Below, piece by piece: positions 13,320-39,563 of a stretch of 64,000 nucleotides of DNA (position 1 is its first letter; every line of letters starts with the position of its first letter). The notes under the pieces were generated by a model. The model searched no databases, had not been told where the DNA came from, and was given only the letters and a program-made list of their open reading frames with translations. This stretch comes from an uncultured Planctomycetales bacterium (GTDB lineage: Bacteria > 4484-113 > JAFGCY01). The stretch is from positions 27,148-91,147 of the forward strand of contig CAZEJB010000007.1 in the NCBI GenBank assembly GCA_964512635.1, written 5' to 3'. The translations under genes were made by a program, and so were the position numbers.

Positions 13320-13389
13320 ACCTGTATATGATTCCACATTGCCCGCGCGGGCGTACGAATAGGCAGGCGCGGCTGCTATAACTACACGC

Positions 13390-14040
13390 ATGATGGGCAG
13401 TCTGTTTGACGCGCAGCCACGGACCGTTGAGGCCCTCAGCCTCGCCGAAGGAGCCGTTCTGCTGCGCGCCTTTGCCGATCCGCAGGCGGCTGAGCTGCTC
13501 GCCGAGGTGGATCGTATCACCGCTGTTTCGCCCTTCCGCCACCTCGAGACGCCCGGCGGTTTTACGATGTCGGTGGCGATGACCAACGCCGGCAAGGTCG
13601 GCTGGGTCTCGGACCGCTCTGGCTATCGCTACCAGCCTACCGATCCGCTGAGCGTCCAGCCCTGGCCGGCCATGCCGCCGCTGCTGCTGGACCTCGCCGC
13701 GCGGGCAGCGGCCGCGGGCGGCTTCCCCGGGTTCGAGCCGGATGTGGCGCTGATCAACCGCTATGTCCCCGGCGCAAGTTTGTCCGCGCATCGCGACGGC
13801 GACGAACGCCACCATGACCAGCCCATCGTCTCGATCTCGCTCGGCCTGCCGGCGACATTCTTCTTCGGCGGCCTGGAGCGCAGCGACCCGGTGAAGAGTT
13901 ATCGTCTGGACAGCGGCGACGTGGTGGTCTGGGGCGGACCGGCGCGGTTGGCCTATCACGGAGTGCGCAAACTGAAGGACGGGCAGCACCCGCTGACCGG
14001 AAACTGCCGCATCAACATAACGTTCAGAAAGGCTTTGTAA
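13390..14040 (+). CDS. alkB: Alpha-ketoglutarate-dependent dioxygenase AlkB (DNA/RNA alkylation repair)
   Basis: ...LINRYVPGASLSAHRDGDE...VSISLGLPATFFFGG...GDVVVWGGPARLAYHGV.... The HxD...H iron ligands and AlkB fold motifs are present. Confidence 0.85.
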   Translation: MMGSLFDAQPRTVEALSLAEGAVLLRAFADPQAAELLAEVDRITAVSPFRHLETPGGFTMSVAMTNAGKVGWVSDRSGYRYQPTDPLSVQPWPAMPPLLLDLAARAAAAGGFPGFEPDVALINRYVPGASLSAHRDGDERHHDQPIVSISLGLPATFFFGGLERSDPVKSYRLDSGDVVVWGGPARLAYHGVRKLKDGQHPLTGNCRINITFRKAL

Positions 14041-14044
14041 CCCC

Positions 14045-14270
14045 TGAACGTAGGGGCGCGTGGATCGCGCCCGCGGTCGGAGCGTCGAGTCGTCGGGATG
14101 CAGGTAGGAGCGCACAGAGTGCGCCCGGCATCTGAACGCAACGCAGCAAGCACTTTTGCGCCCGGTCACTAAACTGTCAGTAACTGCCGGGCGCACTCTG
14201 TGCGCCCCTACCCCAAGTTCGGTACTGCACGGATTTCCCAACGCGGGCGCGCTCCACGCGCCCCTACGAT
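14045..14270. repeat. Cluster of nested REP-like palindromes between the convergent alkB and gmd genes
   Basis: The outer pair is gtaggggcgcgtggatcgcgccc / gggcgcgctccacgcgcccctac. The inner pair is gtaggagcgcacagagtgcgcccgg / ccgggcgcactctgtgcgcccctac. The gcgcacagagtgcgc core recurs at 19198-19267. Confidence 0.6.
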
Positions 14271-16087: not shown

Positions 16088-17050
16088 TTGTCACGGGGGC
16101 TTGCGAAGCACTTCTCTGCGAGCTACCGTGGCCCAGTCACATCCCTCTCCCGCGGCTACAATCTCAGCAACACAGGGAGACAGCCCTTGCTCAAGCGCCG
16201 TAAAGCCCGCGCCTTATCCAGCCTGCAGGACAGGCAGGCGACGTTGGCGCAGGAGCAGCTGCTCAAGGGCTTCGTGGTCGCCGAGCCTCAGCCGGCCCAC
16301 AGCCGTCTGGCCCAGGCTCTCGATTTCAAGGACGCCCGGGAGATTCGCGCCAATATCTATTCCTCCTGCAGCATCCTTAGCGCGGTCGCCGCCTGTGAGT
16401 ACCTCGGCTTCACTGTGGTCAACTCCTCAACCTATGGCCGCGAGTGGCTCTGCCTGCTGCCTGCGCTCGGCGTCTTTGTGGTCTGCGCCGGCAGCCTGCT
16501 GCTCTACCTAAGCCTGCTTGGCACGCTGCGCAGCCATGCCGTCGAGAATCTGCTGGATCGCGGCCTCTATGTCGCCGTCTTCGACCAGACCTTAAGCGAT
16601 CCCCCGCCGAGCGGCATCTGGGCCAAGTTCTTCCAGAAACCCATCGACCGTCTCCTGCGCTCGGACTCGCTGGTCAAGCGCATCAGCGCGCTGGTCGAGT
16701 ACTTCCCGCGCCTGGCCGGAAACAGCGGCCTGGAGCCACTGCCGATGATGGCCTATGTCATTCGCCTGGTGCTCAGCGGAGGCGTCGTCCTGGCGCTCAG
16801 CGTGCCGCTGCTGCTCAGCCTGTATTACTTCGTGACTGCGCTGGTCAGCGGCGACGCCTGGCGCTATGGCAGCAACACCTTCAATGTCGCCGCGGTGCTG
16901 GCCTACATAATCGAGTCCGGCGGCGGGCCGGTTTTCCTGCCTGTAATGATTCTGCTCCATATCTATCTGGCTCTCATCGGCCTGCGGCTCTTTGGCGTCA
17001 TTGAGCGTGCGGCGGTGCGCCAGGCGATGAACGCCATCGTCAACAGCTAG
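16088..17050 (+). CDS. Hypothetical integral membrane protein
   Basis: 320 aa with multiple TM helices in the C-terminal half. The annotated 5' end overlaps the REP, so the true start is uncertain. Confidence 0.45.
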   Translation: MSRGLAKHFSASYRGPVTSLSRGYNLSNTGRQPLLKRRKARALSSLQDRQATLAQEQLLKGFVVAEPQPAHSRLAQALDFKDAREIRANIYSSCSILSAVAACEYLGFTVVNSSTYGREWLCLLPALGVFVVCAGSLLLYLSLLGTLRSHAVENLLDRGLYVAVFDQTLSDPPPSGIWAKFFQKPIDRLLRSDSLVKRISALVEYFPRLAGNSGLEPLPMMAYVIRLVLSGGVVLALSVPLLLSLYYFVTALVSGDAWRYGSNTFNVAAVLAYIIESGGGPVFLPVMILLHIYLALIGLRLFGVIERAAVRQAMNAIVNS

Positions 17051-18292: not shown

Positions 18293-18475
18293 CGGAGCGC
18301 GGACTTTAGTCCGCATCCGGATGGAGCGCGGGACTGTGTCCCGTATTCCTGGAGCGCGGGACTGTGTCCCGTTCTTCTAAGAAGCAGAACCAAACAGGGC
18401 GCGGTGAAAGCCGCGCCCTTTGCGCACTAAGTCCTTGCCAGTCTGGATCAATGAATACGGGACACAGTCCCGGGC
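18293..18475. repeat. Second REP-like family (GGAGCGCGGGACTGTGTCCCG units) between rpsD and mazG
   Basis: Three direct copies of ggagcgcgggact(t/g)t(a/g)gtcc(g/c)g lie at 18293-18372, and one inverted copy (cgggacacagtcccgg) at 18455-18472. They flank a terminator-like hairpin. Confidence 0.55.
18397..18422 (+). terminator. Intrinsic terminator-like hairpin downstream of rpsD
   Basis: gggcgcgg-tgaaag-ccgcgccc followed by ttt. Confidence 0.5.
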
Positions 18476-18479
18476 TCCA

Positions 18480-19181
18480 TCAGCCTTTCTCCGCCTGCTT
18501 GATCCTCTCCCAGTTGGCCAGCACCTCGGCGCTGTCGGCGGCCGAGGCGTCGCCGTAAACGTGGGGATGCCGGCGGATCAGCTTGCGGACTATGGCCTCC
18601 AGGCTGGCATCCACCCCGCCCCGGCCCATGGCCTGCAGGATGTCGCCCATGAAGGCGCTCTGCAGGGTCAGGTCGCCCAGCTCCTCGGTCAGCTCGCCGT
18701 AGAGCCGGTCAAGCTCGGCCTGCTGATCTGCACTCAGGCTGGCTGCGGCAGGCAGCGGCGCGCCGGATGCCGACTGCTCCGAGCCGAAGTCGGGATGATG
18801 CGGATGGTGGACGATGCTGTGGCCCTTCTTCTTCGTCCGCGCCTTCTCCTCTTCCCCGGCCGGTGGCTCGGGGTTGGCTGGCGGCTGGCCGGCCTGCTCC
18901 CGCAGCCCGGCCTCAAAGGCCAATATGTTGTCGATCGCCTCGCAGACCTCGTCGGCCTCCTCCCGGACATACTGCCGCAGGCTGGCCAGGCTCTGCTCGC
19001 GGTCCCAGGGGCAGCCGCCCGGCGCGCGCAGATCAGCCATCAGCCGCGTCAGCTCCATAAACCACTGTCCAGCCTGGGCGATTTGTCCTTCGCGCCCAGC
19101 AGTGGCGCGGTCCCAGCGGGCGCGGACGGCGGGATCTATCGGGTCGGCAAAAGGGGGCTGAGTCATCGGACAAGTATCCAC
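18480..19181 (-). CDS. mazG: MazG-family nucleoside triphosphate pyrophosphohydrolase with a low-complexity insert
   Basis: ...GGCPWDREQSLASLRQYVREEADEVCEAID... (MazG EExxE motif), then a second half with ...ELGDLTLQSAFMG.... A His/Pro-rich insert lies between them. The start may be the internal ATG at 19058. Confidence 0.7.
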   Translation of the reverse strand: MDTCPMTQPPFADPIDPAVRARWDRATAGREGQIAQAGQWFMELTRLMADLRAPGGCPWDREQSLASLRQYVREEADEVCEAIDNILAFEAGLREQAGQPPANPEPPAGEEEKARTKKKGHSIVHHPHHPDFGSEQSASGAPLPAAASLSADQQAELDRLYGELTEELGDLTLQSAFMGDILQAMGRGGVDASLEAIVRKLIRRHPHVYGDASAADSAEVLANWERIKQAEKG

Positions 19182-19197
19182 GATGCTGCCGCGATCT

Positions 19198-19267
19198 GCA
19201 GGGGCGCACAGAGTGCGCCTGGCACAGCTGCTCTATTCGGGCCGGGCGCACTCTGTGCGCCCCTGCT
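19198..19267. repeat. REP inverted pair with the gcgcacagagtgcgc core
   Basis: gcaggggcgcacagagtgcgcc ... ggcgcactctgtgcgcccctgc. Same family as the 14045-14270 cluster. Confidence 0.6.
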
Positions 19268-19274
19268 GTAAACC

Positions 19275-20225
19275 CTACTTCTCACCCTTGTTGATCATTC
19301 GGATCATCTCTTCCTCGGCGAACTGGCCCTCGCCAATGGCCTCGGCAATAGCATCCGCTGGTGCCAGGATCTGGATGCCGGTCAGCTCGCTGAGCTTGCT
19401 GATCTGCTCCGGCAGCAGGCAGCCGATCAGCGCACTCTGACCATCAACGGGGAGTCCAAAAAAGCGCCGTGGACTGCCGCTTTCTCGCAGCAGCTCGTCC
19501 AGCTTGGTCATTACCCGAGGGTCAAACCAGTCACTCTTTTGCTCAAACTTCAGCTCCTGAGGCTGACCGTTGAAGACGAAGGTGATCGTCACCAGCATCT
19601 TGTCGAAATCGAAGCTGTTGCCATAGTCCCTAAGCCCCTCGTAATCAAACTTCTCCTTGACATCTTCCAGCTTCAGGTCGCCCTGAGCCAGTGCCGCAAG
19701 CTCACTGACCTTGTCGGCATACTCACCTTCGTTGCCTTCGATGCATTCTGTGTCAAAGTTCAACAGATTGCGGCAGAGTCTGGTCCAGTGCTCGTCGTCG
19801 TTGTTGTCGTCGTTGTCTTCGTCGTCGAGATCCATCTCTGCGTAGCCGGAGATGTAATGCAGGAAGCTCTGCATATCTTCGCTGTCCAGCGCATCCATGC
19901 CCCAGCTCTCGGCGACCGTCTCAAGTGTGATCCCATCGTTCAGGCTGATACCGACCTGCTCCAGGGCCGCCAGCTTCTCTGCCGCGGTGCCCTTGAAACC
20001 CGGCCCGGCAGGGCCGGCATTGGAAGGCGTCAGCTTCGCCGCGGTGGGAGCTGAGGTTGTTACGGGCCGCGGGGCAGCAGACACGGCGCCGTCAGAGCCA
20101 GCCTTGCTGCGCAGCAGGAAAACAGCGACCAGTCCGCCAAGCACGAGTGCTGCAATGAGGCCGACAAGTACGGGAGTGCTGATCAGGGCCAGGGGCATCT
20201 TTCGCTCCGGTGGTAGAGGCTTCAT
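19275..20225 (-). CDS. Hypothetical membrane-anchored protein with an acidic central region
   Basis: N-terminal TM (LALISTPVLVGLIAALVLGGLVAVFLL) and an acidic DDEDNDDNNDDE stretch. No family assignable. Confidence 0.45.
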   Translation of the reverse strand: MKPLPPERKMPLALISTPVLVGLIAALVLGGLVAVFLLRSKAGSDGAVSAAPRPVTTSAPTAAKLTPSNAGPAGPGFKGTAAEKLAALEQVGISLNDGITLETVAESWGMDALDSEDMQSFLHYISGYAEMDLDDEDNDDNNDDEHWTRLCRNLLNFDTECIEGNEGEYADKVSELAALAQGDLKLEDVKEKFDYEGLRDYGNSFDFDKMLVTITFVFNGQPQELKFEQKSDWFDPRVMTKLDELLRESGSPRRFFGLPVDGQSALIGCLLPEQISKLSELTGIQILAPADAIAEAIGEGQFAEEEMIRMINKGEK

Positions 20226-20257
20226 ACTGCCAAGGATTATAGGGGTACGCCCCAGCC

Positions 20258-21091
20258 TCAGCCCTCGCTGATCAGGCGTTCGAGGCGGTCGATGTAGGCC
20301 CGGGCGGTGACGATGCCCTGGTTGTCCTGCGCCTCCTCGGCCAGCGCCAGGTTGCCGCGCGCGGTGGACAGCGCCTCGACGTACTTCATCTCATAGATCA
20401 GGTCTTCAAGCACGGGGTCTTCCCGCGGCAGGGCCTTGAGCTGTTCCATCAGCGCCAGCTTCTGGGCCACCTGCTTCTGCTTGCGTTCGCTCAGCCGAAG
20501 CACGCTGCCATGGGCTCCGACCTTCTTTTGATCCTCACGCCGCTGCAGCGCCTTTTGCTTGCGTGCCTCCACGCGTCCCTTGTTCGCCTCTATCCGGGCC
20601 TGCCGCGCGGCCAGAGCCTTCTCCTGGCGCAGCTTGCGGATGTCCTTCTTCTCCTCGGCGGTCAGCGGGCGGCCCAGCTCCTTCTCCCGGGAGCGCTGGA
20701 CCCAGGGGCTGTAGCCTCCGCCTTCGCGCTTCCTGAAGATGTTCAGCTCCCTGAACATCTCAGAGCTCTGGTTGGCCTTGTACTGGTCGAAGTCGGTCCA
20801 CTCGTGCTCGCTCTCGTCGAAGAGCTCGGCGTCTTCGCGGTCAAGCTCAACCAGCGGGCTGCGGCGATAGAACAGGTAGAACATCCAGCCTGCCAGTGGC
20901 AGCAGCGCCACCGCAAAGGCCCATGGCGCCCCGCGGTTATAGCGCCACAGCGCGTCGCGGTAGACCCAGTAGACAACATAGAGGTGGGCGAGCAGCAGGA
21001 TCAGGTCAATGACCAGCAGCCAGGGCACGAAGGGGTTGTCCGCTTCGAAGAACCAGTGCAGGCGGTGGCTGAGCTCGCGCAGGAAGTCCAC
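20258..21091 (-). CDS. Hypothetical membrane protein with a coiled-coil, basic C-terminal half
   Basis: Two N-terminal TM helices, then a K/R/E-rich helical region. Confidence 0.45.
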   Translation of the reverse strand: MDFLRELSHRLHWFFEADNPFVPWLLVIDLILLLAHLYVVYWVYRDALWRYNRGAPWAFAVALLPLAGWMFYLFYRRSPLVELDREDAELFDESEHEWTDFDQYKANQSSEMFRELNIFRKREGGGYSPWVQRSREKELGRPLTAEEKKDIRKLRQEKALAARQARIEANKGRVEARKQKALQRREDQKKVGAHGSVLRLSERKQKQVAQKLALMEQLKALPREDPVLEDLIYEMKYVEALSTARGNLALAEEAQDNQGIVTARAYIDRLERLISEG

Positions 21092-24677: not shown

Positions 24678-26336
24678 ATGCGCAAAATCGTCTTCGCCGC
24701 CGCCCTGGCCGCCGCCCTTGGCGCGTCCACCGGCCTGCACATCGACTCAGCCTCGGCGCAGGCCACGCGCTACACCGCGCGTCTGAAGGACAGCCAGGTG
24801 CATCAGCGCCAGCTTCTGGTGCAGCTTGACACCTCCCGCGGGACGAAGAGCGTCTCGGCCCTGGCCAAGAGCACCGGCCTGCGGCACGTCAGCAGCATGA
24901 AGCTCTCCTACGCCACCTATGAAATCATGCAGGTGCCGGCGGGCCAGGACTACATGTCCGCCCTGCGTGCCCTTGAAAACAACCCGGCCGTGCTGTCAGT
25001 CGGCCCGAACGTGATCAAGACTGTCTCCGAATTTGTGCCCAACGATCCGCTGTTCCTTAACGGTGCCGCCGACACGGCAGCTGGCCTTGAAGAGCCCGCG
25101 GTGAAGAATGACCAGTGGGGACTGCTGCACACCGGTGCACAGGACGCCTGGGATCTGAACAAGGGCGAAAGCGATGTGGTGGTGGCGGTGCTCGACACAG
25201 GTATCAATTTCAGCGCCGAGGATCTGGTAAACCGACTTTGGACCAACCCGGGGGAAATCGCCGGCAACGACATCGATGATGACAGCAACGGCTTCGTCGA
25301 TGACGTCCATGGCTATGACTTCCAGACCTATGACCTGTCGACCAGCTCGGGCGGGGATGAAGACCCAACCGACACCCAGGGCGGCATCGTCAGTCACGGC
25401 ACGGCCACATCAAGCATTGTCGCCGCCCAGGGCAACAACGGCGTCGGCATCATGGGCGTTGCCGGTGGCAGCACCCAGGCTACCGGAGCGCGGATCATGG
25501 TCTGCCGCCTGGGAACAGACGACAACATTCCGGTCGCCGCCGAGATCGCCGCTTTGGACTACGCGCGCCAGAATGGTGCGCAAATCGTTTCGATGAGCTT
25601 TGGCGGGGCCAGTGGCGGCGCCCCCGAAGAGGATGCCATCAACCGCTGCTGGAACAACGGCAACGGCGTTCTGGTTATTGCCGCGGCTGGCAACATCGGC
25701 GCAGGCAATGAAGACGGCCAGGGCAACCCGCTGATCGACCTGCCCGCCGGTTTCGCCAACTGCCTGGCAGTCGGCGCGACGACCATCTTCAGTACGCAGA
25801 CAGTCAGCGGCAGCACGAATATCGTCAGCGAGACCGTTGCCGGTTACTCCAAGACCGGCCCGGAGCTGGACATCATGGCTCCGGGGACGCATATCATGGC
25901 GGCTTCTAACAGCGCCAACGAGTACACCAACAGCCTGGGCCGCCAGTTCACCGGCACCAGTGCGGCCACACCGATGGTCGCCGGTCTTGCGGCCCTGATG
26001 ATCAGCGCCGCGCCTGACAGCGGCCCCAACCCCACGGCGGCAGAGCTGCGTGCTTCTTTGATTGCCAACGCGGTTGATCTGGGCCCGGCCGGACGCGACG
26101 ACACTTATGGCAATGGCCGGATCAATATGCTTGGCTCCGTACTCGACTTCGCAGGTGGCAAGGAAGGCGACACCAACGGCGATAACGTGGTGAACGAGGC
26201 CGACCTCGACCAGATCCGCGCGCGCTTTGGCGCCCGCACCGGCGACAGCAACTATGACAAGAAGGCCGACGCCAACAATGACGGCGTGATCGACGAGCTG
26301 GATGTCTTCGTGGTCGGCCGCAAGTTCGGCAGCTAG
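24678..26336 (+). CDS. Secreted S8 subtilisin-like peptidase with a C-terminal dockerin module
   Basis: Signal peptide (MRKIVFAAALAAALGASTG...AQA), the subtilase Asp/His/Ser boxes (VAVLDTGIN..., HGTATSSIV, GTSAATPMVAGLAAL), and a C-terminal duplicated dockerin (DTNGDNVVNEADLDQIRARFG ... DANNDGVIDELDVFVVGRKFG). Confidence 0.85.
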   Translation: MRKIVFAAALAAALGASTGLHIDSASAQATRYTARLKDSQVHQRQLLVQLDTSRGTKSVSALAKSTGLRHVSSMKLSYATYEIMQVPAGQDYMSALRALENNPAVLSVGPNVIKTVSEFVPNDPLFLNGAADTAAGLEEPAVKNDQWGLLHTGAQDAWDLNKGESDVVVAVLDTGINFSAEDLVNRLWTNPGEIAGNDIDDDSNGFVDDVHGYDFQTYDLSTSSGGDEDPTDTQGGIVSHGTATSSIVAAQGNNGVGIMGVAGGSTQATGARIMVCRLGTDDNIPVAAEIAALDYARQNGAQIVSMSFGGASGGAPEEDAINRCWNNGNGVLVIAAAGNIGAGNEDGQGNPLIDLPAGFANCLAVGATTIFSTQTVSGSTNIVSETVAGYSKTGPELDIMAPGTHIMAASNSANEYTNSLGRQFTGTSAATPMVAGLAALMISAAPDSGPNPTAAELRASLIANAVDLGPAGRDDTYGNGRINMLGSVLDFAGGKEGDTNGDNVVNEADLDQIRARFGARTGDSNYDKKADANNDGVIDELDVFVVGRKFGS

Positions 26337-26387
26337 TGTAAGGTGTCCAAGGCAACAGCAAAAGGTCAGGCAAACAATGAGTAGGAA

Positions 26388-26414
26388 AAAGGGGCGCAGA
26401 CTGCGCCCCTTTTG
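26388..26414. terminator. Bidirectional intrinsic terminator between convergent genes
   Basis: aaaaaggggcgcag-ac-tgcgcccctttt. A perfect GC hairpin with T/A runs on both strands. Confidence 0.7.
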
Positions 26415-26447
26415 TTTCCGAAGTGATGTTGCCGCGCGGGCGAGCTT

Positions 26448-26783
26448 CTAGTCTTCGCGGGTTGCCAGCTGCAGCTTGTGTTCACGGCCCAGCGGCTCAG
26501 GGCCGGGCTTGCGCGGGTTGCCCTTGACGAAGTCAGCCGCGCGCTTGACCGCACTGCAGACCTCTTCGTGCATCTGCTGCAGCTCAGCGACTGTGAGATA
26601 GAAGCTGGTATCGACAGCAAAGCGCATATAGCGTGGCGGCAGCTGGTTAAGGGCCAGGCAGGCGATGTCCTCCAGGGCGCCGGGCTGGGTGGCCAGGGCG
26701 CTCTCAGAGTACTCCAGCATGATCTGCTCGCGCACCAGGCGCTCGTAGTAGTTGCTGACCGAATCGAAATCCACGTATCGCAT
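26448..26783 (-). CDS. ComFB-like protein (late competence development protein family)
   Basis: 111 aa with ...NYYERLVREQIM...DIACLALNQLPPRYM.... This matches the ComFB signature (CLALN.LPP.Y). Confidence 0.5.
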   Translation of the reverse strand: MRYVDFDSVSNYYERLVREQIMLEYSESALATQPGALEDIACLALNQLPPRYMRFAVDTSFYLTVAELQQMHEEVCSAVKRAADFVKGNPRKPGPEPLGREHKLQLATRED

Positions 26784-26913
26784 AGCTGCCTCGGCGGCGA
26801 TGGCCGCAAGGGATATATCGGCCGCTTCTGCCAGGGCGCACAGCGCTCGCCCTGCTATTTCTCGTCAAGCGGCCCGGCGCAATCTGCGCCAGCTACCCTG
26901 CTAAACTTCCAGC

Positions 26914-27348
26914 ATGCAGCATGCCCGCAGTGGAAACCTCGTTGCCGTGCGCCTCAAGGCGCCGGAGCCCGTTCACGAAAGCCTGTGCGAGATTGCCCGG
27001 CATTACGGCTTCAGCAGCGCCTACGTTATCTCCGGGATCGGGATGCTGGCTGACCCGTCGATCGGGTACTACGACCTGCCGACCCAGAAGTATCACGAGG
27101 AGACGATTCCGGGCAATCATGAGCTGCTGAACCTGGCCGGCAACATCAGCCTGCGAGACGGCGAACTCATGGGGCACCTGCATGTGACGCTCAGCCGTGA
27201 GGACCACAGCGCCTTCGGCGGGCATCTCTTTGGCGCCAGGGTTGGCCTGACCTGCGAGGTTATGCTGGCCGTCCTGGACCCGGTGAAGATGTGGCGTCAG
27301 CTTGAGCCGGAATTCGGCCTGCCGGGCCTGATGATCGACCCGGAGTAG
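26914..27348 (+). CDS. PPC/DUF296-domain protein
   Basis: 144 aa. ...GNLVAVRL...HESLCEIARHYGFSSAYVISGIG...GHLHVTLS...GHLFGARVGLTCEV... is typical of the PPC (DUF296) fold. Confidence 0.55.
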   Translation: MQHARSGNLVAVRLKAPEPVHESLCEIARHYGFSSAYVISGIGMLADPSIGYYDLPTQKYHEETIPGNHELLNLAGNISLRDGELMGHLHVTLSREDHSAFGGHLFGARVGLTCEVMLAVLDPVKMWRQLEPEFGLPGLMIDPE

Positions 27349-27392
27349 ACCAGCTGGCGCTGGCCGGCGGACACTGCGGCGCGGCAGAGGTC

Positions 27393-27749
27393 CTAGAGGT
27401 TGACCTCGGCCACGGCCAGAGCCGGCACAGGGGCGCCGGAGTTATAGGCCCGCAGCATCGCACCGGTCTCATGGGTCTTGCGGATCTCGTTGCGCAGCAC
27501 GCTAAGGCGGCGGCGGATGAGCCCCGAGAGGGCTTCATCGGCCTGCAGGATCAGTCCCAGACGCGCAAAGACCGTATTGTCCAGCTGCGGCTCGCGGACG
27601 ACGCGGTTGAGCACCGCGCTCATGCGGGCGCCCTTTTCCGCCAGCAGCTCCTCAAGCCCTTCCAGGCTGTCGTCTTCCACGACCTGGCGAATCCGGCTCT
27701 GGGCCGCTTCAACTCCGCGAAGCTGCAATTCAAGCTGAACGATGTTCAT
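27393..27749 (-). CDS. FliT/FlgN-like flagellar chaperone candidate
   Basis: 118-aa all-helical protein immediately downstream of fliS, which is the fliT position in fliD-S-T operons. Sequence similarity is weak. Confidence 0.35.
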   Translation of the reverse strand: MNIVQLELQLRGVEAAQSRIRQVVEDDSLEGLEELLAEKGARMSAVLNRVVREPQLDNTVFARLGLILQADEALSGLIRRRLSVLRNEIRKTHETGAMLRAYNSGAPVPALAVAEVNL

Positions 27750-27803
27750 GTCCGTCTCCGTGCACCCATGGTGCCAAATGATCTGATACTCCCCAAACAC
27801 GGC

Positions 27804-28457
27804 TTAGCCGGTCAGATCCAGGGCGCCCGCGAGCGCCTCTTCTTCTTCCGCGCCGGCATTAACTCCAGGGCTGTCGATATGACCAGGCTCATCGCCGATG
27901 GCGGCAGCGCCGCCTGGGCTGAGGCTCTCGCGGCGCTTATGGCCGACGCGCCCGCGCAGCTCCTCCGGTACCGAGGCCAGCCCGGCCGGGAAGGCCTCGT
28001 TCCAGGTGCGGGACAGCCCTTCCAGCAGGCCCTGCGCCTCACGCAGCGGCCGCTCGCTCTTGCTCATGTCGGCCTCGCGCAGCAGGTGCAGGATGTAGTC
28101 GTACAGGCGCTCCAGCTGCAGGGCAATTTCGCCGCCGTTCTCGTTGTCGAGAGTCGCCGCAAGCTCGGCGACGATGGCGTAGGCCTTGAGGATGGCGTTA
28201 TGCGCCTCCTCATAGGCCGGGCGGCCCGGCTCGCGCGCTGCACTCAGACGCGCGGCGGCTGCCGCAGCGGCGTTGCCCGAACTGCTGGCGGACTGGCTGC
28301 CGCCAGCGCCGGCCTGCGGGGCCGGCTCGCCGCGCAGCGCCGCCTGCGCCAGCAGGCAGTTGCGCAAGGCGCCGTCATACAAGAGCCCCACCAGCCGCAC
28401 AGGATCGGCCTGATTGACTGCGGTGGAGCGATAGTTCTGATAAGCCTGCATCGACAT
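27804..28457 (-). CDS. fliS: Flagellar export chaperone FliS with a low-complexity insert
   Basis: MSMQAYQNYRSTAVNQADPVRLVGLLYDGALRNC...GGEIALQLERLYDYILHLL.... Canonical FliS N-terminus and helix 3. Confidence 0.8.
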   Translation of the reverse strand: MSMQAYQNYRSTAVNQADPVRLVGLLYDGALRNCLLAQAALRGEPAPQAGAGGSQSASSSGNAAAAAAARLSAAREPGRPAYEEAHNAILKAYAIVAELAATLDNENGGEIALQLERLYDYILHLLREADMSKSERPLREAQGLLEGLSRTWNEAFPAGLASVPEELRGRVGHKRRESLSPGGAAAIGDEPGHIDSPGVNAGAEEEEALAGALDLTG

Positions 28458-28617
28458 GCGTAGAAGCTATATCGGCGGGGGGGCAGTGGGGTTGAGGGAG
28501 AAAGAAGGCGGGCCTGCTGATTCGGCCTGCAAAGCGAAGTAATAGAGTGAGATTAGTGGGGCAACATACGCCGCAGCTACGGAGCATCCTGTCCGCCTGG
28601 TAGAAAACCCTGACCAT

Positions 28618-28649
28618 GGAAAAAGAAAGGGCCGCCCTTGCGGGCGGCC
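28618..28649 (-). terminator. Intrinsic terminator after the scaffold lipoprotein gene
   Basis: On the minus strand: gggccgccc-gcaa-gggcggccc followed by TTTCTTTTTCC. Confidence 0.65.
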
Positions 28650-28703
28650 CTGAGAATCCAAATTCAACGTTGCAGTAAATCACTGCGACGCTGCTGCAGC
28701 GGT

Positions 28704-31151
28704 TTAGAGGTCCGCCAGTCCGGTCAGCTGAGCAATGATCGGGTGAGTACCCTCAGCGTTACCACCGACCCAGCGGCAGTTGCCGTCGCGGTCGAGCAGG
28801 ACGTTGAAGGGGATGTAGCCGTCATAGCCCATCATGCTGTAAGCCGGGTTATGGATGTCCGTACCACCCTTGCTGTGGAACTGGTACACATAGTCCAGGT
28901 TGTTGGTCTGGAAGTAGGGCTTGATGTCCACGATCTCGTAAGGAGCCGGATCGGAGGAATAGGCGAACATCACGTAGTCGGCATCGCCAAAGTGCTCAGC
29001 GATATCATCCAGGCCAGGCAGCTCCGCCTTGCACGGACCGCACCACAGCTCCCAGCGGTTAACGAGGGCCACACGGCCGTTGACCCAGTCCTTAAACTGG
29101 CCAAAGCCGCTGGTGGTGTCAGTAACAGCGCCACCCTGGCTGAGCGGCTGCAGATACTCAAGTCCATCCAGGCTGAAGTCAGGCATGATACCGCTTCCAG
29201 CAGGATCACCAACCGGACGATTGCCCGCGCCGCCGCGATCGGCAAACTCGGTCTTGATGCTCTCGTTGGTCAGGTAGATCTTGGTGGTAGCGCTGTCGTT
29301 CTGCGCGCCGAAGGTCGCGGAAGCGGTGATCGTCACAACCTGGGGCTGCGGGCTGCCGCTGGGCTTCCAGGTCACGCTGGGGCCGCTGCCGGTAAAGGAA
29401 CCGATATTCGGGTTGGCGGACCAGTTAACCGAATCCGGAGTGGTGTTGCAGCTCACCGTCAGGGTCGTGGCAGGCTCGCTGCCGTCAACGTTATGGGTGG
29501 TCTTGGTGTTGGTGATGCCAGTAACGTCAAAGACGATGGCGGCGCTGGGAATGCTGGAAGCGTGAGTCGACTCCAGGCTCTCCAGGCTGCCGGCATTGTT
29601 AAAGGCGGTGACGTAATACTCGTAGGTCTCACCCTCAGTCAAGCCGTCGTTGTCATCGAAGAAATCGATGAAGGCGTTCACTGTCTGGCCAATCTTGGTG
29701 AAGGACGATTCGGCCGGGCCCTTACGATAAACGTAATAGCGGTTGGCCAGACCATCGCTGGTGGTCGTCCAGGTCAGGTGAATGCTCAAGGCTCCGGCGC
29801 CAGGGGCGGCAGCCAGACCGGTGGGAGCGACCGGGAGGATGACCGGCGCGATGTACGGCGTGGCAGTAGCAACATTGCTGTAGACGCTGCTGTTCGCCGG
29901 GTTCTCACGGTCAATCGCCTGCAGACGGAAGTCGTAGTCGGCCTCAACGAAAGCAGGGTTGGTAATGCTGATACTGGTGGTCGGGCCGTCAGCGGTGGTA
30001 CCAAAGACCACGTAGGCGGAATCCGCTTCTGAGCTCAGCTTCCACTCGATGTTGTAGAAGTCAACGTCATTGCTGGTGCTGCCGGTCCAGTTCAGAAGGA
30101 TCGTGCGGTCGCCGATCGCTTCGCTGCCTTCAGCAGTAAGGTTGGTCGGCGGCAGCGGGGCGCCCGGATCAAAGACGATGGCCTCAGCCTCGTTGGACTT
30201 CGGGCCCGGATTGTCCATATCGTCATTGGACACAGGGGCAACCCAGAAGGAGGTCGCGCTGAAGTCCGCCAGATCGATCGGGACGTGGTAGATCATGGGC
30301 TTGTCAGACTCGCGGGTCTGCTCGCTGCGCGGGGCCCAGATGTCGCCACCCTCAGGAGAGCCGGTCTCGCTGGTGAACAGCATGTAACCGGTGATCTTGT
30401 GGCCAAAGTTCACGCCGATGGTGGTCAGGTCCTGTACGTTGATGGTGCCGTCGCCGGAACCGTCAACAATCCGCAGGATCGCCGGGTTGGCACCGGTGGC
30501 GACCTGCTGGCCGAAGCTGACACCGATCGGGGTCAGGTCCTGGGCGGAAACCACGCCGTCGATGTTGTAGTCGCCGGCGTTCTTCTCGGTCCAGGTCAAC
30601 TCATCACTGCCGCCGTTCTGCACCAGTTCCAGGTCGTCCACCGTGTTGGAGGCGCCGGAAGGAGTGGATGAGGCATTGCGCACGCCGCTGAAGGGCGTGT
30701 TGCGGAAGGTGATGGTCGCCAGCTGTCCACGACCGTCGGCAGGCTCAGCGCCCAGGCCATTAGCCTGGACAATGGAGACCGGGACGATGTCGGCCTGGTT
30801 GGTCAGGCTGAAGCTGAGGACCTCGTCCTCGGAGCCCAGGAAGGATCCCATCTCGACCTTCTCAGGGCTGAAGCGGCTGGAGTCATACTTCAGGTTGAAC
30901 GCAACCGCGGACAGATCCAGCGCCTCCGTGGCTTCAATGGTCACCACGGTGGAGCTGCCCGTGTCCTTCACGGTCAGCGCAGGGCTGTAGGAGCCCAGAC
31001 CGGTATCCTCGGTCTGAACCACGAATGCGGCGCCACGATCCTCAAACTCCGGCGCGAGATTGTCGCCGACGTTGGACGTGGAACACGCAAAGGCAAACAG
31101 AGCCAGTACTACGATCAGTACCAGCCCAAGCAGCTTGCGCATAGCCATCAC
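28704..31151 (-). CDS. Multidomain surface lipoprotein: cohesin-like domain, dockerin, two FN3 domains, Ig/PKD-like region and a C-terminal TlpA-like thioredoxin domain
   Basis: Lipoprotein signal (LALFAFACSTSN). The N-terminal beta-sandwich resembles cohesin. The dockerin is a duplicated Ca-binding repeat (DYNIDGVVSAQDLTPIGVSFG ... GDGTINVQDLTTIGVNFG). FN3-like segments are present (...LLNWTGS...YNIEWK...). The C-terminus carries a WCGPC thioredoxin motif (TlpA/ResA-like). Confidence 0.75.
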   Translation of the reverse strand: MMAMRKLLGLVLIVVLALFAFACSTSNVGDNLAPEFEDRGAAFVVQTEDTGLGSYSPALTVKDTGSSTVVTIEATEALDLSAVAFNLKYDSSRFSPEKVEMGSFLGSEDEVLSFSLTNQADIVPVSIVQANGLGAEPADGRGQLATITFRNTPFSGVRNASSTPSGASNTVDDLELVQNGGSDELTWTEKNAGDYNIDGVVSAQDLTPIGVSFGQQVATGANPAILRIVDGSGDGTINVQDLTTIGVNFGHKITGYMLFTSETGSPEGGDIWAPRSEQTRESDKPMIYHVPIDLADFSATSFWVAPVSNDDMDNPGPKSNEAEAIVFDPGAPLPPTNLTAEGSEAIGDRTILLNWTGSTSNDVDFYNIEWKLSSEADSAYVVFGTTADGPTTSISITNPAFVEADYDFRLQAIDRENPANSSVYSNVATATPYIAPVILPVAPTGLAAAPGAGALSIHLTWTTTSDGLANRYYVYRKGPAESSFTKIGQTVNAFIDFFDDNDGLTEGETYEYYVTAFNNAGSLESLESTHASSIPSAAIVFDVTGITNTKTTHNVDGSEPATTLTVSCNTTPDSVNWSANPNIGSFTGSGPSVTWKPSGSPQPQVVTITASATFGAQNDSATTKIYLTNESIKTEFADRGGAGNRPVGDPAGSGIMPDFSLDGLEYLQPLSQGGAVTDTTSGFGQFKDWVNGRVALVNRWELWCGPCKAELPGLDDIAEHFGDADYVMFAYSSDPAPYEIVDIKPYFQTNNLDYVYQFHSKGGTDIHNPAYSMMGYDGYIPFNVLLDRDGNCRWVGGNAEGTHPIIAQLTGLADL

Positions 31152-31322: not shown

Positions 31323-32981
31323 TCAGAAACGCCGCGTGAAGTCTACCCGCAGGCCCTCGAACTCTGGCTCGAGCCGGCAAACACCTCCAGAGCACACGAA
31401 ACCTGCCCGGCGGCTGCCGGTGATGATATCGATCTCAGTCAGCTCATCGGGATGCAGCTTTAGCTCCCAGAGCTTCCAGGTGGACTTGTCGTCTGGTCCG
31501 CCAGTTCCGGTTTTTTCCCAGCGGTAGATCAGGTTGGCAAGGCTCATGTAGGCGAGCTCAGGCTCAATGATGTAATCTGTGTAACCAATGGAGTAGTTGT
31601 TATCCAGCCGCTCGTTTTCCAGGAACATAGTCCCTGTCCAGTCTTCGTTGAGTATCTGGTTCAGCGTCATGCGGGTGATCTCATGATGCTGATCGAAATC
31701 AAGAACCTGCCAGTATTCGGCGATGTAAGAGAAGTCCTGGCCCCCGGGACTGTTATAGGTGGCAAAAAACTCGGAATAGGGCCGGCCACCAGCGTTGCTG
31801 TTGTCCTGACCGTAGCCAAAGTTGAAGAAGGATCCGTCGCCGATTGGGTTCCAGTTCATCGAGAATCCATAACCAAAATCATCGTTTGGGTCTGCCTGAG
31901 ACTTCTCCTGCCAGCGGCGAACCGGAGGCAGTACTGCGAAGGGCTGAGTCAAACCGCGATATTCCTTGTACTCACCGGTAAGCGCAAGACCCTTAATGCT
32001 GTAGTTGGCAGTCAGGTAGGTCCCATGCCCATCCTGGCCGCTCAAGTCAAACTGGTTGTTAGAGGCAAAATCGATGGCTGAACGCTGAAGGCGAACAGTT
32101 TCGCCATACACCTTGAACTTGCCAAATTTGACCTGGGCATCAAGGCCGGTCAGTTTGTAGTCCAGCATCTGAGGCATTGCAGGACTGTGTGCGCCGAATG
32201 GAATATCGAGGTTCACCAGGTAGGCTTCGACATCGACGTTATCTCCCACCGGACTTTTCATCCTGACTGCATTTACCTTTGATGCAGCCGCTGCAGCGAG
32301 CTCCTTGCGAGAGCCGTAAAGGGCTTCAATCTCCGCATCACCGAGTTTCTGCTCGACCAGAACTCCTTCGACCTCGTTGTCGAACTCCAGGAAGCGCTCC
32401 TCAAACATGTTCAAGGCAAGTCCCCGGCCAAAGACCGTGCCATAACTTCCCACAGTGGCCTTGCCGTCGTCCCAGCGGTAGCGGGCGCGGGCTTTACTGA
32501 TGCGAAAAGGCTCGGTCTTATAGTTGAAAGCGTTGACGTCGGAAAGCCGAATGAAGGCATCATAATTCTCATAGGAGAGGTTCAGCTCGAATTCCTTCTC
32601 CCACTTCTCAGTGTCGCTGATCTCGTCTTTGCTGTATTTTCCGAAGACGCGGCCGCTGTAGCGCACTTCCTCGGGCTTCTCACGGCGCAGGTCGAAATCA
32701 TGTTCCAGGGCTTCAGAAGCGGGGTAAGTGCCCTCATGAACGACCGTCTCGGGGAAGAACTTCTTGATGACGTCTTCTACGGTCTGGGCGGAGGTACCGG
32801 GCTCTGTAACTTCGCGCATGGCGTCGAAGGCCTCGTCAGAGCCGCTGATCACCAGCACCCCGTCTTCGGTATCTTCGGCGGCGAAGGCAGGGCTGAAGTT
32901 TAGTGCGCCAAAGGCCGCGCAGGCCACCAGGGCCGCGCAGGCGCCAAGCCAAATTTTGCTGCAGCCCAGGGGCCGGGCCAT
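31323..32981 (-). CDS. Outer-membrane beta-barrel protein, uncharacterised family
   Basis: Signal peptide (MARPLGCSKIWLGACAALVACAAFGA...AFAAE), alternating amphipathic beta-strand pattern, and a C-terminal aromatic residue (...VDFTRRF). Confidence 0.55.
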   Translation of the reverse strand: MARPLGCSKIWLGACAALVACAAFGALNFSPAFAAEDTEDGVLVISGSDEAFDAMREVTEPGTSAQTVEDVIKKFFPETVVHEGTYPASEALEHDFDLRREKPEEVRYSGRVFGKYSKDEISDTEKWEKEFELNLSYENYDAFIRLSDVNAFNYKTEPFRISKARARYRWDDGKATVGSYGTVFGRGLALNMFEERFLEFDNEVEGVLVEQKLGDAEIEALYGSRKELAAAAASKVNAVRMKSPVGDNVDVEAYLVNLDIPFGAHSPAMPQMLDYKLTGLDAQVKFGKFKVYGETVRLQRSAIDFASNNQFDLSGQDGHGTYLTANYSIKGLALTGEYKEYRGLTQPFAVLPPVRRWQEKSQADPNDDFGYGFSMNWNPIGDGSFFNFGYGQDNSNAGGRPYSEFFATYNSPGGQDFSYIAEYWQVLDFDQHHEITRMTLNQILNEDWTGTMFLENERLDNNYSIGYTDYIIEPELAYMSLANLIYRWEKTGTGGPDDKSTWKLWELKLHPDELTEIDIITGSRRAGFVCSGGVCRLEPEFEGLRVDFTRRF

Positions 32982-33139
32982 CGCAGTCCAGTCCACAGTT
33001 GCTCCATCCCCACCGGGGCCGGGCCCCGCTTGCTTCCATCCTCGTCGCCGCCGGAGCGGCTCTCCGCTTGCCCCTCGGACCTGGCGCCGCGGATCTTGCA
33101 CCAGCCGGGCGGCATCCCGCCGCCGCTTACATCTCTATT

Positions 33140-33682
33140 TTAGCTCTCGCCTTCGATCTCCACGGCCTCAACTTCCTCGCCCGCGAGAAACTTCTCGATG
33201 ACGTCCTTCAGCTCCTCTTCCTGACCAGGCTTGTAGCCATAGTGCTGAAAGAGCAGGTTACGATCCTGGTCGATAACAAAGCTGGCCGGGCTGGCCTTGA
33301 CGCCAAAGTCGCCGCTGACTTCGAGGTCAGTGTCGAGCAGCACGTCGAAGCTGTAGTCGTTGCTCTTGAAGAAGGGCTCGACCTGAGGCAGGGTCAGGCT
33401 GGTGTCACGGCTGATGATCACGAAAACCACGCCGTCATCCTTGTAATCGTCGTAATACTCCTGCAGGTGCGGAAGCAGCTCGTTGCAGGGCTTGCAGCCG
33501 ACCTGCCAGAAATCGATGACCACCAGCTTGTGGTCCTCAAGCAGGCCCTTGAGGCTGACCTCGTCGCCGCTGAGGTTCTCCAGTTCAAAGTTTGACACGC
33601 CGGCTGCATGGGCTGCCAGGGGCAGTGTGAACAGCAGGGGGGCGGCCAGAATGATGGCGGCCAGAGCGATCAGGTGGCGCAT
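33140..33682 (-). CDS. Periplasmic TlpA-like thiol:disulfide oxidoreductase
   Basis: Signal peptide, ...VVIDFWQVGCKPCNELLP... (CxxC), and a thioredoxin-fold C-terminal region. Confidence 0.8.
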   Translation of the reverse strand: MRHLIALAAIILAAPLLFTLPLAAHAAGVSNFELENLSGDEVSLKGLLEDHKLVVIDFWQVGCKPCNELLPHLQEYYDDYKDDGVVFVIISRDTSLTLPQVEPFFKSNDYSFDVLLDTDLEVSGDFGVKASPASFVIDQDRNLLFQHYGYKPGQEEELKDVIEKFLAGEEVEAVEIEGES

Positions 33683-33794
33683 GTGCTTCCTCCGAAGCCA
33701 GGATTTTAGCATTCGCTTTACATGAAACGAGCGCAGGCGAAGGCCACAGACAGGACAGCCTGCAAGCTACGGATGTTCATAGTAGAGTCGAAGC

Positions 33795-38436: not shown

Positions 38437-39477
38437 CTACCGCTTCGCCCGCGGGTGCGTCTTCTCGTAGCTCTCCAGCAGCTGCTTACGCGTGATCTGC
38501 GTATAGACCTGCGTGGTGTTGATGCTGCTGTGGCCCAGCAGCTCCTGCAGCAGGCGCACATCCGCCCCGCCCTCCAGCATATGCGTGGCGCAGGCATGCC
38601 GCAGCTTATGCGGTGAGACCGGCTTGAGGCAGCCGGCAAGCAGCGCCGCCTCATCAACGATGCGCTGGATCGCTCGCGGTCCGAGCGGCTGGCCGCGAGT
38701 GCTGAGCCACAGCGGCGCATCCTGGCCGGTTCCAGAAAGTCCAGCTGCGGCCAGTAAATCTCCCGCACCAGAGCTGCTCGCCCTGGCCGCCAGCAGCGGG
38801 CGCGACTGGCAGATGTAGCGTTCCAACAGCTCGGACGCGCGCTCGCCATAAGGCACTGTCCGCAGCTTGCTGCCCTTGCCGAGCACACTTAGCAGGCACT
38901 CGGAGCTGCGCAGGCTGCCCAGCCTCAGCCCGGCGCATTCGCTGACACGCAGACCGGCGGAGTAAAGGATGTGCAGGACTGCACTGTTGCGGAGGGCTAC
39001 CGGGCCCTTGATCTCGTCAAAGGCTCGCACCAGCGCCAGGATTTCGTCGACATTGAAATAGGCCGGCAGCTGGCGGCTGTACTTCGGTGCGCTGGGAGAG
39101 GTCTGCGCCAGCCCTGAGTCGCCAGAAGCGACATCTCCGGCACCTGGCAACTGTCCGCTGAACTCAAGATAGCGCCGGTAAGCCTTAAGCGCGCTGACTG
39201 CCCGGGCCGCACTGCGGCTGCTCAGCACTCGCTTCGGCCCGGCATCGCGGCGGCCCGGCAGGCTGCGCTGCATGATGTAGAGCCCGACCTGGCTGCGTCC
39301 CAGCGCCCGCGCAGTTTCAAGCCCGTTGCCTTCACACCATTTATGAAAGGCAGACACATCCCGGATGTAGGCTTCAGCCGTCCGTGCGGCGCGTCCAAGT
39401 ACCTGCTGCAGGTACGCGCCGAAGCTCAGCGCGGCCGCGCTGTCAGCCGACTCCTTATGGCCGGGAAAGTCTGACAT
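38437..39477 (-). CDS. Tyrosine recombinase XerC/XerD family
   Basis: ...LRHACATHMLEGGADVRLLQELLGHSSINTTQVYTQI.... The R..HxxR...Y catalytic signature is present. The start is taken at the ATG at 39477 (MSDFPGH...). Confidence 0.8.
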   Translation of the reverse strand: MSDFPGHKESADSAAALSFGAYLQQVLGRAARTAEAYIRDVSAFHKWCEGNGLETARALGRSQVGLYIMQRSLPGRRDAGPKRVLSSRSAARAVSALKAYRRYLEFSGQLPGAGDVASGDSGLAQTSPSAPKYSRQLPAYFNVDEILALVRAFDEIKGPVALRNSAVLHILYSAGLRVSECAGLRLGSLRSSECLLSVLGKGSKLRTVPYGERASELLERYICQSRPLLAARASSSGAGDLLAAAGLSGTGQDAPLWLSTRGQPLGPRAIQRIVDEAALLAGCLKPVSPHKLRHACATHMLEGGADVRLLQELLGHSSINTTQVYTQITRKQLLESYEKTHPRAKR

Positions 39478-39563
39478 GAACAAGTCCGGCGCGGCAGCGT
39501 TCAATGCATGTGGGCCAGGCCCAGCCGCGCGCAGGAATACTATACAATATATGAGTTAAACAA

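Follow-up and report, generated by a model that had tools for sequence, protein, structure and literature searches.

Does a lipoprotein that carries both a cohesin-like and a dockerin-like domain serve as a surface scaffold for a dockerin-tagged protease encoded beside it? The question is posed by a 64,000-nucleotide stretch of DNA from an uncultured Planctomycetales bacterium (contig CAZEJB010000007.1 of assembly GCA_964512635.1), referred to throughout as the window. An initial annotation, made from the letters alone, described an S8 protease and an 815-residue lipoprotein as a putative cohesin-dockerin assembly with the lipoprotein as its scaffold, and both open reading frames (ORFs) were confirmed at their annotated coordinates, 24678–26336 (+) and 28704–31151 (−). 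To our knowledge, cohesin-dockerin pairs are understood almost entirely from the cellulosomes of Gram-positive anaerobes. The analysis presented here shows that the 815-residue protein belongs, as its thioredoxin-bearing member, to a large family with a common N-terminal anchor module. The best explanation of the locus, held with moderate confidence, is an envelope thiol-disulfide redox system built on a lineage-specific, cis-docked anchor, with the S8 protease as a conserved neighbor.

The lipoprotein comprises, in order, a signal peptide with a lipobox, a cohesin domain, a β-hairpin, a dockerin-like pair, a probable β-sandwich, two FN3 domains, a probable Ig-like domain, and a thioredoxin domain (Table 1). 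The lipobox cysteine is nearly invariant in the alignment of its subfamily, and the serine at +2 would place the protein in the outer membrane; in Escherichia coli, the residue at +2 after the lipidated cysteine decides the membrane to which a lipoprotein is sorted. Pfam recovers the two FN3 domains seen by the initial annotation as two stretches. The segment that follows them has no Pfam match, and a conserved block in alignments A1 and A5 suggests that it probably adopts an Ig-like fold.

The N-terminal domain matches Pfam Cohesin (PF00963) at 27.5 bits within the whole protein and 31.4 bits as an isolated region, above the cut-off of 24.1 bits. When the PDB was searched by sequence, neither the full-length lipoprotein nor a six-sequence profile of the module retrieved a cohesin, only thioredoxins and calmodulin EF-hands, so that a comparison of folds was required for confirmation. 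An AlphaFold2 model of residues 40–260 (221 residues), built from a 51-sequence alignment (A3), reached a mean predicted local distance difference test (pLDDT) score of 94.1 and a predicted template modeling (pTM) score of 0.87, with no segment below a pLDDT of 50. The model contains a β-sandwich, a conserved linker with a β-hairpin, and three dockerin helices. An earlier run with six sequences (pLDDT 58, pTM 0.57, disordered dockerin) was set aside. The cohesin part has a pLDDT of 91–98, and Foldseek comparison with the PDB places cohesins at ranks 1–47, except for a cellulose-binding module at rank 39 (probability 1.0, E values of 3e-4 to 2e-2); type I, type II, and Clostridium perfringens cohesins are among them. 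Because the top matches are cohesins, the domain is not an unrelated Ig fold, the outcome against which the initial annotation had asked for its cohesin-like sandwich to be checked. Both the family hidden Markov model (HMM), above threshold, and the fold, closest to solved cohesins, thus bear out that assignment.

The dockerin assigned to the lipoprotein itself stands in part. Residues 192–252 carry a duplicated EF-hand loop and helix, with loops DYNIDGVVSAQD and DGSGDGTINVQD that have Asp at positions 1, 5, and 12, and they are collinear with the dockerin of the S8 protease, but they score only 16.1–18.4 bits against Dockerin_1 (profile positions 1–51 of 57), under the Pfam cut-off of 22.9 bits. 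The loop Asp residues are the sole invariant or near-invariant acidic columns of the module in the 51-sequence alignment, and the module profile matches calmodulin EF-hand pairs in the PDB at an E value of 2e-4. In the model this cis dockerin forms its three helices at a pLDDT of 94–97. The linker that joins it to the cohesin is also well defined, with hairpin strands at model positions 136–140 and 143–147 (pLDDT 80–93) and nearly invariant R119, L146, and W148 in the numbering of alignment A3, to which 39 is added to obtain the protein residue.

The mutual position of the two domains is confidently predicted, so that cohesin and dockerin would behave as one supradomain, a single rigid unit in the model. 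The pTM score of 0.87 describes the fixed position of the cis dockerin against the sandwich and does not give which cohesin face is covered. A comparable arrangement is found in the type II X-module-dockerin dyads of cellulosomal scaffoldins, in which a β-sandwich packs rigidly N-terminal to the dockerin; the complexes 2B59, 4FL4, and 5K39 of such dyads are among the Foldseek matches. The unit of the window is likewise a β-sandwich immediately ahead of a dockerin and, as predicted, rigidly packed against it. Unlike X modules, however, its sandwich matches cohesins by both Pfam and Foldseek, and the proteins that carry it are already lipid-anchored. In the most likely reading, the unit would serve next to the membrane as an anchor or spacer complete in itself, docked in cis and stabilized by calcium.

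How widely this unit is used bears directly on the scaffold question. Run as a full HMMER scan, the profile of the module returned at least 2,819 representative clusters (clustered at 50% identity) at E ≤ 1e-3, 1,679 at E ≤ 1e-10, and 224 at E ≤ 1e-30. The full scan was needed, as word-index homologue searches were nearly blind to the family (6 matches and 1 match); a back-translated pattern scan of genome contigs reached two species genomes only, its patterns being too specific. Nearly all matches lie at residues ~40–260 of proteins 180–1,527 residues long, and a lipobox-like cysteine precedes the module in 131 of 133 N-terminally complete members, with a median module start at residue 43. 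What follows the module varies, including PKD, fn3, CotH, clostripain, β-propeller, chitinase-N, redoxin, and other domains.

The family is a divergent branch, as only 5 of 69 members match Cohesin (PF00963) at E ≤ 1e-3; Dockerin_1 is matched at that level in the module region of 16 of the 69, at best with 5.7e-12. Conservation extends past the dockerin. In the subfamily alignment, V304, P306, and G316 of the small domain are nearly invariant and S319 is invariant, and WVRP.D.....G..S is still visible in the consensus of the 69 diverse members, so the common N-terminal region reaches approximately residue 330. This segment (~253–330) probably forms a β-sandwich. No Pfam or NCBIfam model spans the whole cohesin-dockerin unit, and nothing was found in the literature on a cohesin-dockerin lipoprotein family. 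Its members are named in databases as "hypothetical protein [bacterium]", "PKD repeat protein", "redoxin family protein", or "thiol-disulfide isomerase", and probably belong to uncultured bacteria of GTDB phylum 4484-113. One subfamily of ~500 residues (P0042, P0049, P0052, P0059, P0066, P0123, P0128, and others) ends in ...[YC][AGC]GTPSN[LMH]V..., a motif that might be a sorting or processing signal.

Because the unit heads thousands of lipoproteins with unrelated C-termini, the 815-residue protein is no dedicated scaffold, and this part of the initial annotation does not hold: it has a single cohesin, to which its own dockerin is joined. The lipoprotein contains no carbohydrate-binding module (CBM) or glycoside hydrolase domain, and neither was found among the ~30 window ORFs scanned, which cover part of the window. 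The only dockerin motifs in the 64 kb are those of the lipoprotein and the S8 protease, with no second cohesin-dockerin module. With just one cohesin present and neither CBMs nor glycoside hydrolases seen in these ORFs, a cellulosome-like system was rejected.

A family in which each member combines a single cohesin with a single dockerin, always in the same order, could also assemble with itself. The dockerin of one lipoprotein would bind the cohesin of the next, as a chain or domain swap, to build a mixed layer on the outer membrane. The occurrence of several paralogues per genome and in tandem is consistent with this: among loci of relatives, L003 and L010 hold three each, L023 four, and L019, L037, and L052 two, and two family members lie on one 2.38 Mb contig. 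Conservation within the module peaks in the Ca-loop residues and the DLTPIG..FG helices, as expected for a common interface, and self-association has been proposed for AF2375, a cohesin- and dockerin-bearing protein of Archaeoglobus fulgidus. Nonetheless, the compact monomer in which AlphaFold confidently places both domains, and a 24-residue linker and hairpin that are conserved, well predicted, and suited to a fixed intramolecular arrangement, make homotypic assembly rather unlikely.

The A. fulgidus proteins are the nearest precedent. A survey by Peer et al. in 2009 reportedly covered non-cellulosomal cohesin and dockerin proteins, some with both modules, such as AF2375/AF2376. The window family resembles this type in having cohesin and dockerin on one polypeptide, no cellulases or CBMs nearby, and dockerins on peptidases. 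It differs in the conserved hairpin that joins the modules into a rigid predicted unit, in the position of this unit directly behind a lipobox, and in its setting, among a very large set of paralogues from an uncultured diderm lineage. PMC12484212 also mentions the A. fulgidus pair.

The WCGPC motif that the initial annotation read as TlpA-like lies at residues 703–707, within a domain that contains WCGPCKAELP and ...YIPFNVLLDRDG. Residues 685–791 match 2LJA, 1JFU (TlpA), 3HDC, and thioredoxins in the PDB at E values of 1.4e-5 to 7e-5 (phmmer), and the NCBIfam models TlpA, ResA, and DsbE give partial matches, which supports the assignment; the orthologue P0016 is called "redoxin family protein" at NCBI. 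The domain shares with TlpA, ResA, and CcmG (DsbE) a thioredoxin fold, a W-C-x-x-C-x-x-E-x-P active site, a cis-Pro loop, and export, since the lipobox signal peptide puts it outside the cytoplasm. As in those systems, the lipoprotein is paired with a second periplasmic TlpA-like protein. It departs from them in standing at the C-terminal end of a ~650-residue lipoprotein stalk, in an operon with a DUF6029 gene. A TlpA-like domain is also part of the outer-membrane protein PilB/MsrAB of Neisseria. In contrast to both groups, no cytochrome-maturation or Msr genes lie near the window lipoprotein.

The closest homologues of the lipoprotein end at ...W-E-S-W, one position short of the first cysteine of WCGPC. 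In their DNA the stop is TGA, after which T-Y-C-K-Q-E-L-P-G-L and the remaining thioredoxin domain continue in frame. The same was found in 16 of 16 orthologues and paralogues of this form: TGA at the first active-site cysteine, then x-x-C and at least 45 open thioredoxin-like codons. The annotated frame stops at UGA in all 16, and ~22 of 150 family representatives end exactly there. Gene callers split these genes into a ~670-residue "hypothetical protein" and a ~100-residue fragment, such as IT575_15445 in GCA_020849855.1. Cys forms occur in eight loci, and the tandem of L003 combines one Cys with two selenocysteine (Sec) paralogues.

A hairpin follows the UGA, with a stem of 5–7 bp (nucleotides 13–19 and 25–31, counted from the U of UGA) and the loop AGUUN. 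Pairing is found in 79.6% of cells versus 58% in shuffled sequences. The covariation score is 0.576, compared with 0.19 in shuffles, none of which reached it in 500 trials, and 0.15–0.26 in slid controls. Columns 17 and 27 pair as CG seven times, GC four times, AU twice, and UA once, with none broken. The stem has 3–7 bp in 12 of 14 Sec forms, and the other two have a hairpin in a shifted register. In the seven Cys forms examined it is reduced to 1–2 bp, despite the same encoded E-[LFM]-P motif. No Rfam model recognizes the hairpin. With an in-frame UGA and a hairpin that resembles a selenocysteine insertion sequence, the usual signature of bacterial selenoproteins that have Cys homologues, the TGA orthologues are, as read from their DNA, predicted selenoproteins, and Sec would be the attacking residue in most orthologues of this domain. 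The window gene has TGC at this position, so its protein is the Cys form. The alternation of Sec and Cys among orthologues argues strongly that the thioredoxin domain is a redox catalyst.

Thioredoxin-fold selenoproteins with a UxxC motif have been catalogued under the names Prx-like thiol:disulfide oxidoreductase, thiol:disulfide interchange protein, and redoxin family protein (PMC9312934), and NCBIfam holds a "ResA-like WAxxUGC" model. The orthologues agree with these in the attacking position of Sec, the hairpin after the UGA, the existence of Cys homologues, and the truncated gene calls. Points of difference are the motif, [WSGT]-U-x-x-C in place of WAxxUGC, the Cys form of the window protein, and the placement of the Sec domain in the orthologues as head of a multidomain cohesin-dockerin lipoprotein. 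In its Sec aspect, the subfamily adds a member to already catalogued UxxC selenoprotein families. The window contains no tRNA genes, and no Sec-machinery or CcdA/DsbD genes were seen among the ~30 ORFs scanned.

The lipoprotein gene has conserved partners. A gene series of TlpA-like, DUF6029, and one to three lipoprotein copies, all co-oriented, recurs in 12 independent loci (window, L001, L003, L005, L006, L008, L010, L011, L015, L021, L054, and L055; loci of relatives were read as ~20 kb each), with lipoprotein identity down to ~33%. In L007, DUF6029 and the lipoprotein are kept and a 4HBT gene takes the place of the TlpA-like gene, while in L008 the complete operon lies in a different genomic context with other flanking genes. 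An SLH-domain protein and a 702-residue PKD protein are encoded near it (L008 1–405 and 1342–3450), which hints that the lineage also uses S-layer-homology anchoring. The 190-residue TlpA-like protein scores 72.5 bits with AhpC-TSA, 59.3 with Redoxin, and 49.1 with Thioredoxin_8, and matches the NCBIfam ResA subfamily at 1.7e-20. It is common for one TlpA-like/DUF6029 pair to be followed by several tandem paralogues of the thioredoxin lipoprotein, two to four in number, with Cys and Sec forms mixed (L003 9926–18320, L010 4726–12330, L055 4838–10039, and L023 2832–11515); the window has a single copy, the Cys form.

DUF6029 orthologues are 39–78% identical and all match PF19494. A 552-residue database gene call indicates that the true start of the window gene is probably near 32981. 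A PDB sequence search with the protein gave nothing usable. Pairs of a barrel gene and a surface lipoprotein gene are known from the Slam/TbpB and SusC/SusD types, and, as an analogy only, the DUF6029 gene likewise stands immediately upstream of its lipoprotein gene in a conserved pair. Unlike Slam or TonB-dependent barrels, DUF6029 is similar by HHpred to the 18-stranded outer-membrane barrel Wzi (PMC9603273), and its product is a probable outer-membrane β-barrel. At loci of further members of the family, for example L023, L030, L034, and L037, DUF6029 is missing; it therefore tracks the thioredoxin function and not the cohesin-dockerin module.

These parts suggest a model for the envelope redox system. 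The lipoprotein would be a three-part outer-membrane protein with the cohesin-dockerin module at its base, a stalk composed of the small domain, two FN3 domains, and the Ig-like domain, and a catalytic thioredoxin head. Reducing equivalents would pass from a CcdA/DsbD-type membrane protein, presumed to be encoded outside the window, to the periplasmic TlpA-like protein and from there to the U/CxxC domain of the lipoprotein. This head may then reduce or isomerize disulfides of envelope or extracellular substrates, while the DUF6029 barrel might expose the lipoprotein at the surface or serve as its membrane partner.

Where does this leave the S8 protease? Its catalytic domain is that of an intact subtilase, with a Pfam Peptidase_S8 score of 147.9 bits (E 4.9e-43), intact D/H/S triad motifs read in the sequence as VLDTG, HGT, and GTSAATP, and ordinary secreted subtilases as closest solved relatives in a PDB sequence search (E down to 6e-26). 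Its C-terminal duplicated Ca-binding dockerin, recognized by the initial annotation, is genuine. It scores 32.3 bits against Dockerin_1 (PF00404) in the whole protein and 38.7 bits in the isolated last 63 residues, spans profile positions 2–55 of 57, and consists of two ~22-residue D-x-[ND]-x-D-G...D loop repeats with helix, DTNGDNVVNEAD and DANNDGVIDELD, both kept in eight orthologues. Aligned with the cis dockerin of the lipoprotein, it is collinear and 32% identical with one 3-residue indel and the common ending ...G.xFG. The two genes are, as the initial annotation noted, within 3 kb on opposite strands: they are convergent and 2.4 kb apart, with four unrelated genes between them.

Several observations weigh against the reading of a cis-docked redox system with a mere protease neighbor. 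The thioredoxin domain falls marginally under the Pfam cut-offs for AhpC-TSA (24.9 versus 26 bits) and Redoxin (22.5 versus 26.6 bits), and no CcdA/DsbD electron donor is encoded in the annotated parts of the window. The lipoprotein could face either the surface or the periplasm. The AlphaFold2 model is a monomer prediction, in which a true trans contact may be drawn in cis. The S8 dockerin is of the same lineage-specific subtype as the cis dockerin. Furthermore, an S8-dockerin gene lies 0.1–4.5 kb downstream of the lipoprotein gene or genes in eight of nine informative loci (present in the window, L001, L006, L007, L010, L011, L054, and L055; the ninth is L008), which fits a functional link, and in L006 it directly follows the lipoprotein on the same strand.

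A rival model that develops the initial annotation has the lipoprotein, as a single-cohesin anchor, capture the S8 dockerin and bring reductase and protease together on the envelope for redox-assisted, keratinase-like proteolysis. Both putative partners exist, in a genuine cohesin fold and a genuine type I dockerin. The S8 orthologues retain the dockerin in eight of eight loci and stay by the cluster through rearrangements, the module HMM matches the S8 dockerin at E values of 1e-6 to 1e-9, and the protease has a Fervidolysin-type prodomain. Fervidolysin is a keratinase, and keratin degradation requires disulfide reduction. A precedent for such capture is offered by OlpA and OlpC of Clostridium thermocellum, whose structures (3UL4 and 4DH2) are among the Foldseek matches. 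Like them, the lipoprotein presents one cohesin on an envelope anchor and could tether a single dockerin enzyme. In contrast to them, it is held by a lipid rather than by SLH repeats, its cohesin is fused to a dockerin of its own, and it bears its own catalytic thioredoxin domain.

That fusion, in a rigid predicted unit, is the first obstacle to trans docking. The collinearity of the S8 and cis dockerins makes a common cohesin type plausible, but the same unit is present on thousands of lipoproteins and nothing singles out the cohesin of this one as the S8 receptor. The conserved operon partners are the TlpA-like protein and DUF6029, not the protease, which in the window is convergent and four unrelated genes away, and L008 has the three-gene operon with both S8 and PCC missing. 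Bacterial dockerins without cohesin partners are reportedly common, according to Peer et al. in 2009. The capture model is therefore possible though not probable: the S8 dockerin may dock on the cohesin of the lipoprotein or of another family member, but the unit is unlikely to be a receptor reserved for the protease.

What decided the weight of the adjacency itself is the rest of the neighborhood. That it was mere local synteny of two close genomes was seemingly overturned by L006, L007, L010, and L011. Its use as deciding evidence was in turn given up after L054 and L055, in which ~15 genes of unrelated function form one block: NadE, DUF502, PFK, [TlpA, DUF6029, lipoprotein], FliS, FliT-like, PCC, ComFB, S8, MazG, a ~290-residue ORF, and CN_hydrolase, parts of which recur in L003, L006, and L007. 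NadE, PFK, FliS, ComFB, MazG, and the cytoplasmic PCC protein are also kept in order here. Since clearly unrelated genes are equally "linked" in the block, the S8 adjacency is weak evidence of function and may be inherited synteny. The PCC gene lies between the lipoprotein and S8 genes in nine loci and stays with S8 even through the inversion of the PCC-S8 segment in L006; the L003 contig breaks off right after this constant companion of S8.

Two further roles for the protease can be considered. As a maturation or shedding protease, it would dock transiently on family cohesins, cut the stalk, and free the C-terminal domains. Its dockerin of the family subtype, its gene near a family member, and the long stalks with exposed linkers in family members would suit such a role. 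S8 is, however, found at loci of the thioredoxin subfamily only and is missing from L023, L030, L034, L037, L038, L040, L043, L046, L051, and L052, and no conserved cleavage motif was identified, which makes shedding highly improbable. Alternatively, the units may form a lipid-anchored, non-cellulosomal display that both links lipoproteins and accepts dockerin-only enzymes. The cluster would then be an extracellular reduce-and-cut machine, in which the TlpA-like protein feeds the Sec/Cys head, DUF6029 acts as conduit or exposure device, and docked S8 degrades disulfide-rich proteins after their reduction. Such a combined machine appears distinctly unlikely.

Of the genes between lipoprotein and protease, FliS and the FliT-like gene are the sole flagellar ones in their neighborhood. 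Their synteny extends to L001, L054, and L055, and FliS, FliT, and ComFB are lost in L006, L007, L010, and L011. Farther away, a tyrosine recombinase gene of the phage-integrase family (38437–39504, −) stands beside a hydantoinase gene; as this arrangement is also found in L001, it is probably a resident XerC/D-like gene and not a mobile-element boundary. A 701-residue DUF5693 protein (42792–44897, +; 350 bits) forms a block with FG-GAP and LmeA-like proteins that is possibly envelope-related. For several long ORFs of 200–804 residues at 3498–5912 (−), 11464–12738 (+), 13216–14241 (−), 16088–17050 (+), and 18420–21091, Pfam gave no match at E ≤ 1e-4; in a sequence of 62% GC some of them may be spurious, and others may encode lineage-specific proteins.

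Table 1. Features of the locus. Nucleotide positions refer to the window, except for the TGA-form sites, which are given for the named loci of relatives.
Feature	Position	Strand	Residues	Remarks
S8 subtilase	24678–26336	+	552 aa	secreted; Pfam, PDB subtilase similarity
S8 signal peptide			1–28	cleavable, without lipobox
S8 Fervidolysin-like prodomain			43–111	Pfam
S8 catalytic domain			165–480	Pfam
S8 type I dockerin	26166–26324	+	497–549	C-terminal; Pfam
ComFB-family gene	26448–26783	−		adjoins S8; syntenic in L001, L054, L055
PCC (DUF296) protein	26914–27348	+		without signal peptide, cytoplasmic; Pfam PCC 98.8 bits
FliT-like gene (weak)	27393–27800	−
FliS chaperone gene	27804–28457	−	217 aa	Ala/Ser-rich insertion splits Pfam match in two
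Lipoprotein	28704–31151	−	815 aa	third gene of conserved cluster
Signal peptide and lipobox	31083–31151	−	1–23	...LFAFAC; lipidated Cys23, Ser at +2; read from sequence
Cohesin-fold β-sandwich	30678–31025	−	~43–158	Pfam, AlphaFold, Foldseek
Linker with β-hairpin	30579–30677	−	~159–191	motifs R..S..P, VDDL, L.W.E.N; conserved
Dockerin-like EF-hand pair	30396–30578	−	~192–252	loops DYNIDGVVSAQD and DGSGDGTINVQD
Small conserved domain	30162–30395	−	~253–330	motif FWV.P...D....PG..S
Two FN3 domains	29562–30155	−	~333–432 and ~442–530	Pfam fn3 37.8 bits, two stretches
Ig-like domain (probable)	29256–29540	−	~538–632	conserved TDKTTH...SV.W block
TlpA/ResA-like thioredoxin domain	28707–29189	−	~655–815	CGPC active site 29031–29042
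DUF6029 protein	31323–33101	−	592 aa as listed	second cluster gene; Pfam 70.8 bits
TlpA/ResA-like periplasmic thiol-disulfide oxidoreductase	33140–33712	−	190 aa	first cluster gene; signal peptide, active site GCKPC
TGA-form sites	L001 12005–12343; L003 14524–14832, 18018–18320; L010 6847, 9439, 12014; L011 11963
TGA-form sites, further	L012 2546; L013 2524; L014 1623; L017 2309; L018 1967
TGA-form sites, further	L023 9230, 11516; L054 13805; L055 9713

The novelty of this locus lies in a cohesin-dockerin module that is fused, lipid-anchored, and placed at the head of a very large family, in this case with a Sec/Cys thioredoxin domain and a cluster that includes a probable outer-membrane barrel. 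The Sec forms that gene callers cut in two at the UGA offer a concrete annotation fix. Through the TlpA-like/DUF6029/thioredoxin lipoprotein trio, DUF6029 acquires a first specific genomic link to envelope thiol redox chemistry. For engineering, the unit might also be a source of a compact, Ca-dependent anchor. An answer to whether the two modules act as a cis lock, as links in chains, or in enzyme capture would show what roles cohesins and dockerins play outside cellulose degradation.

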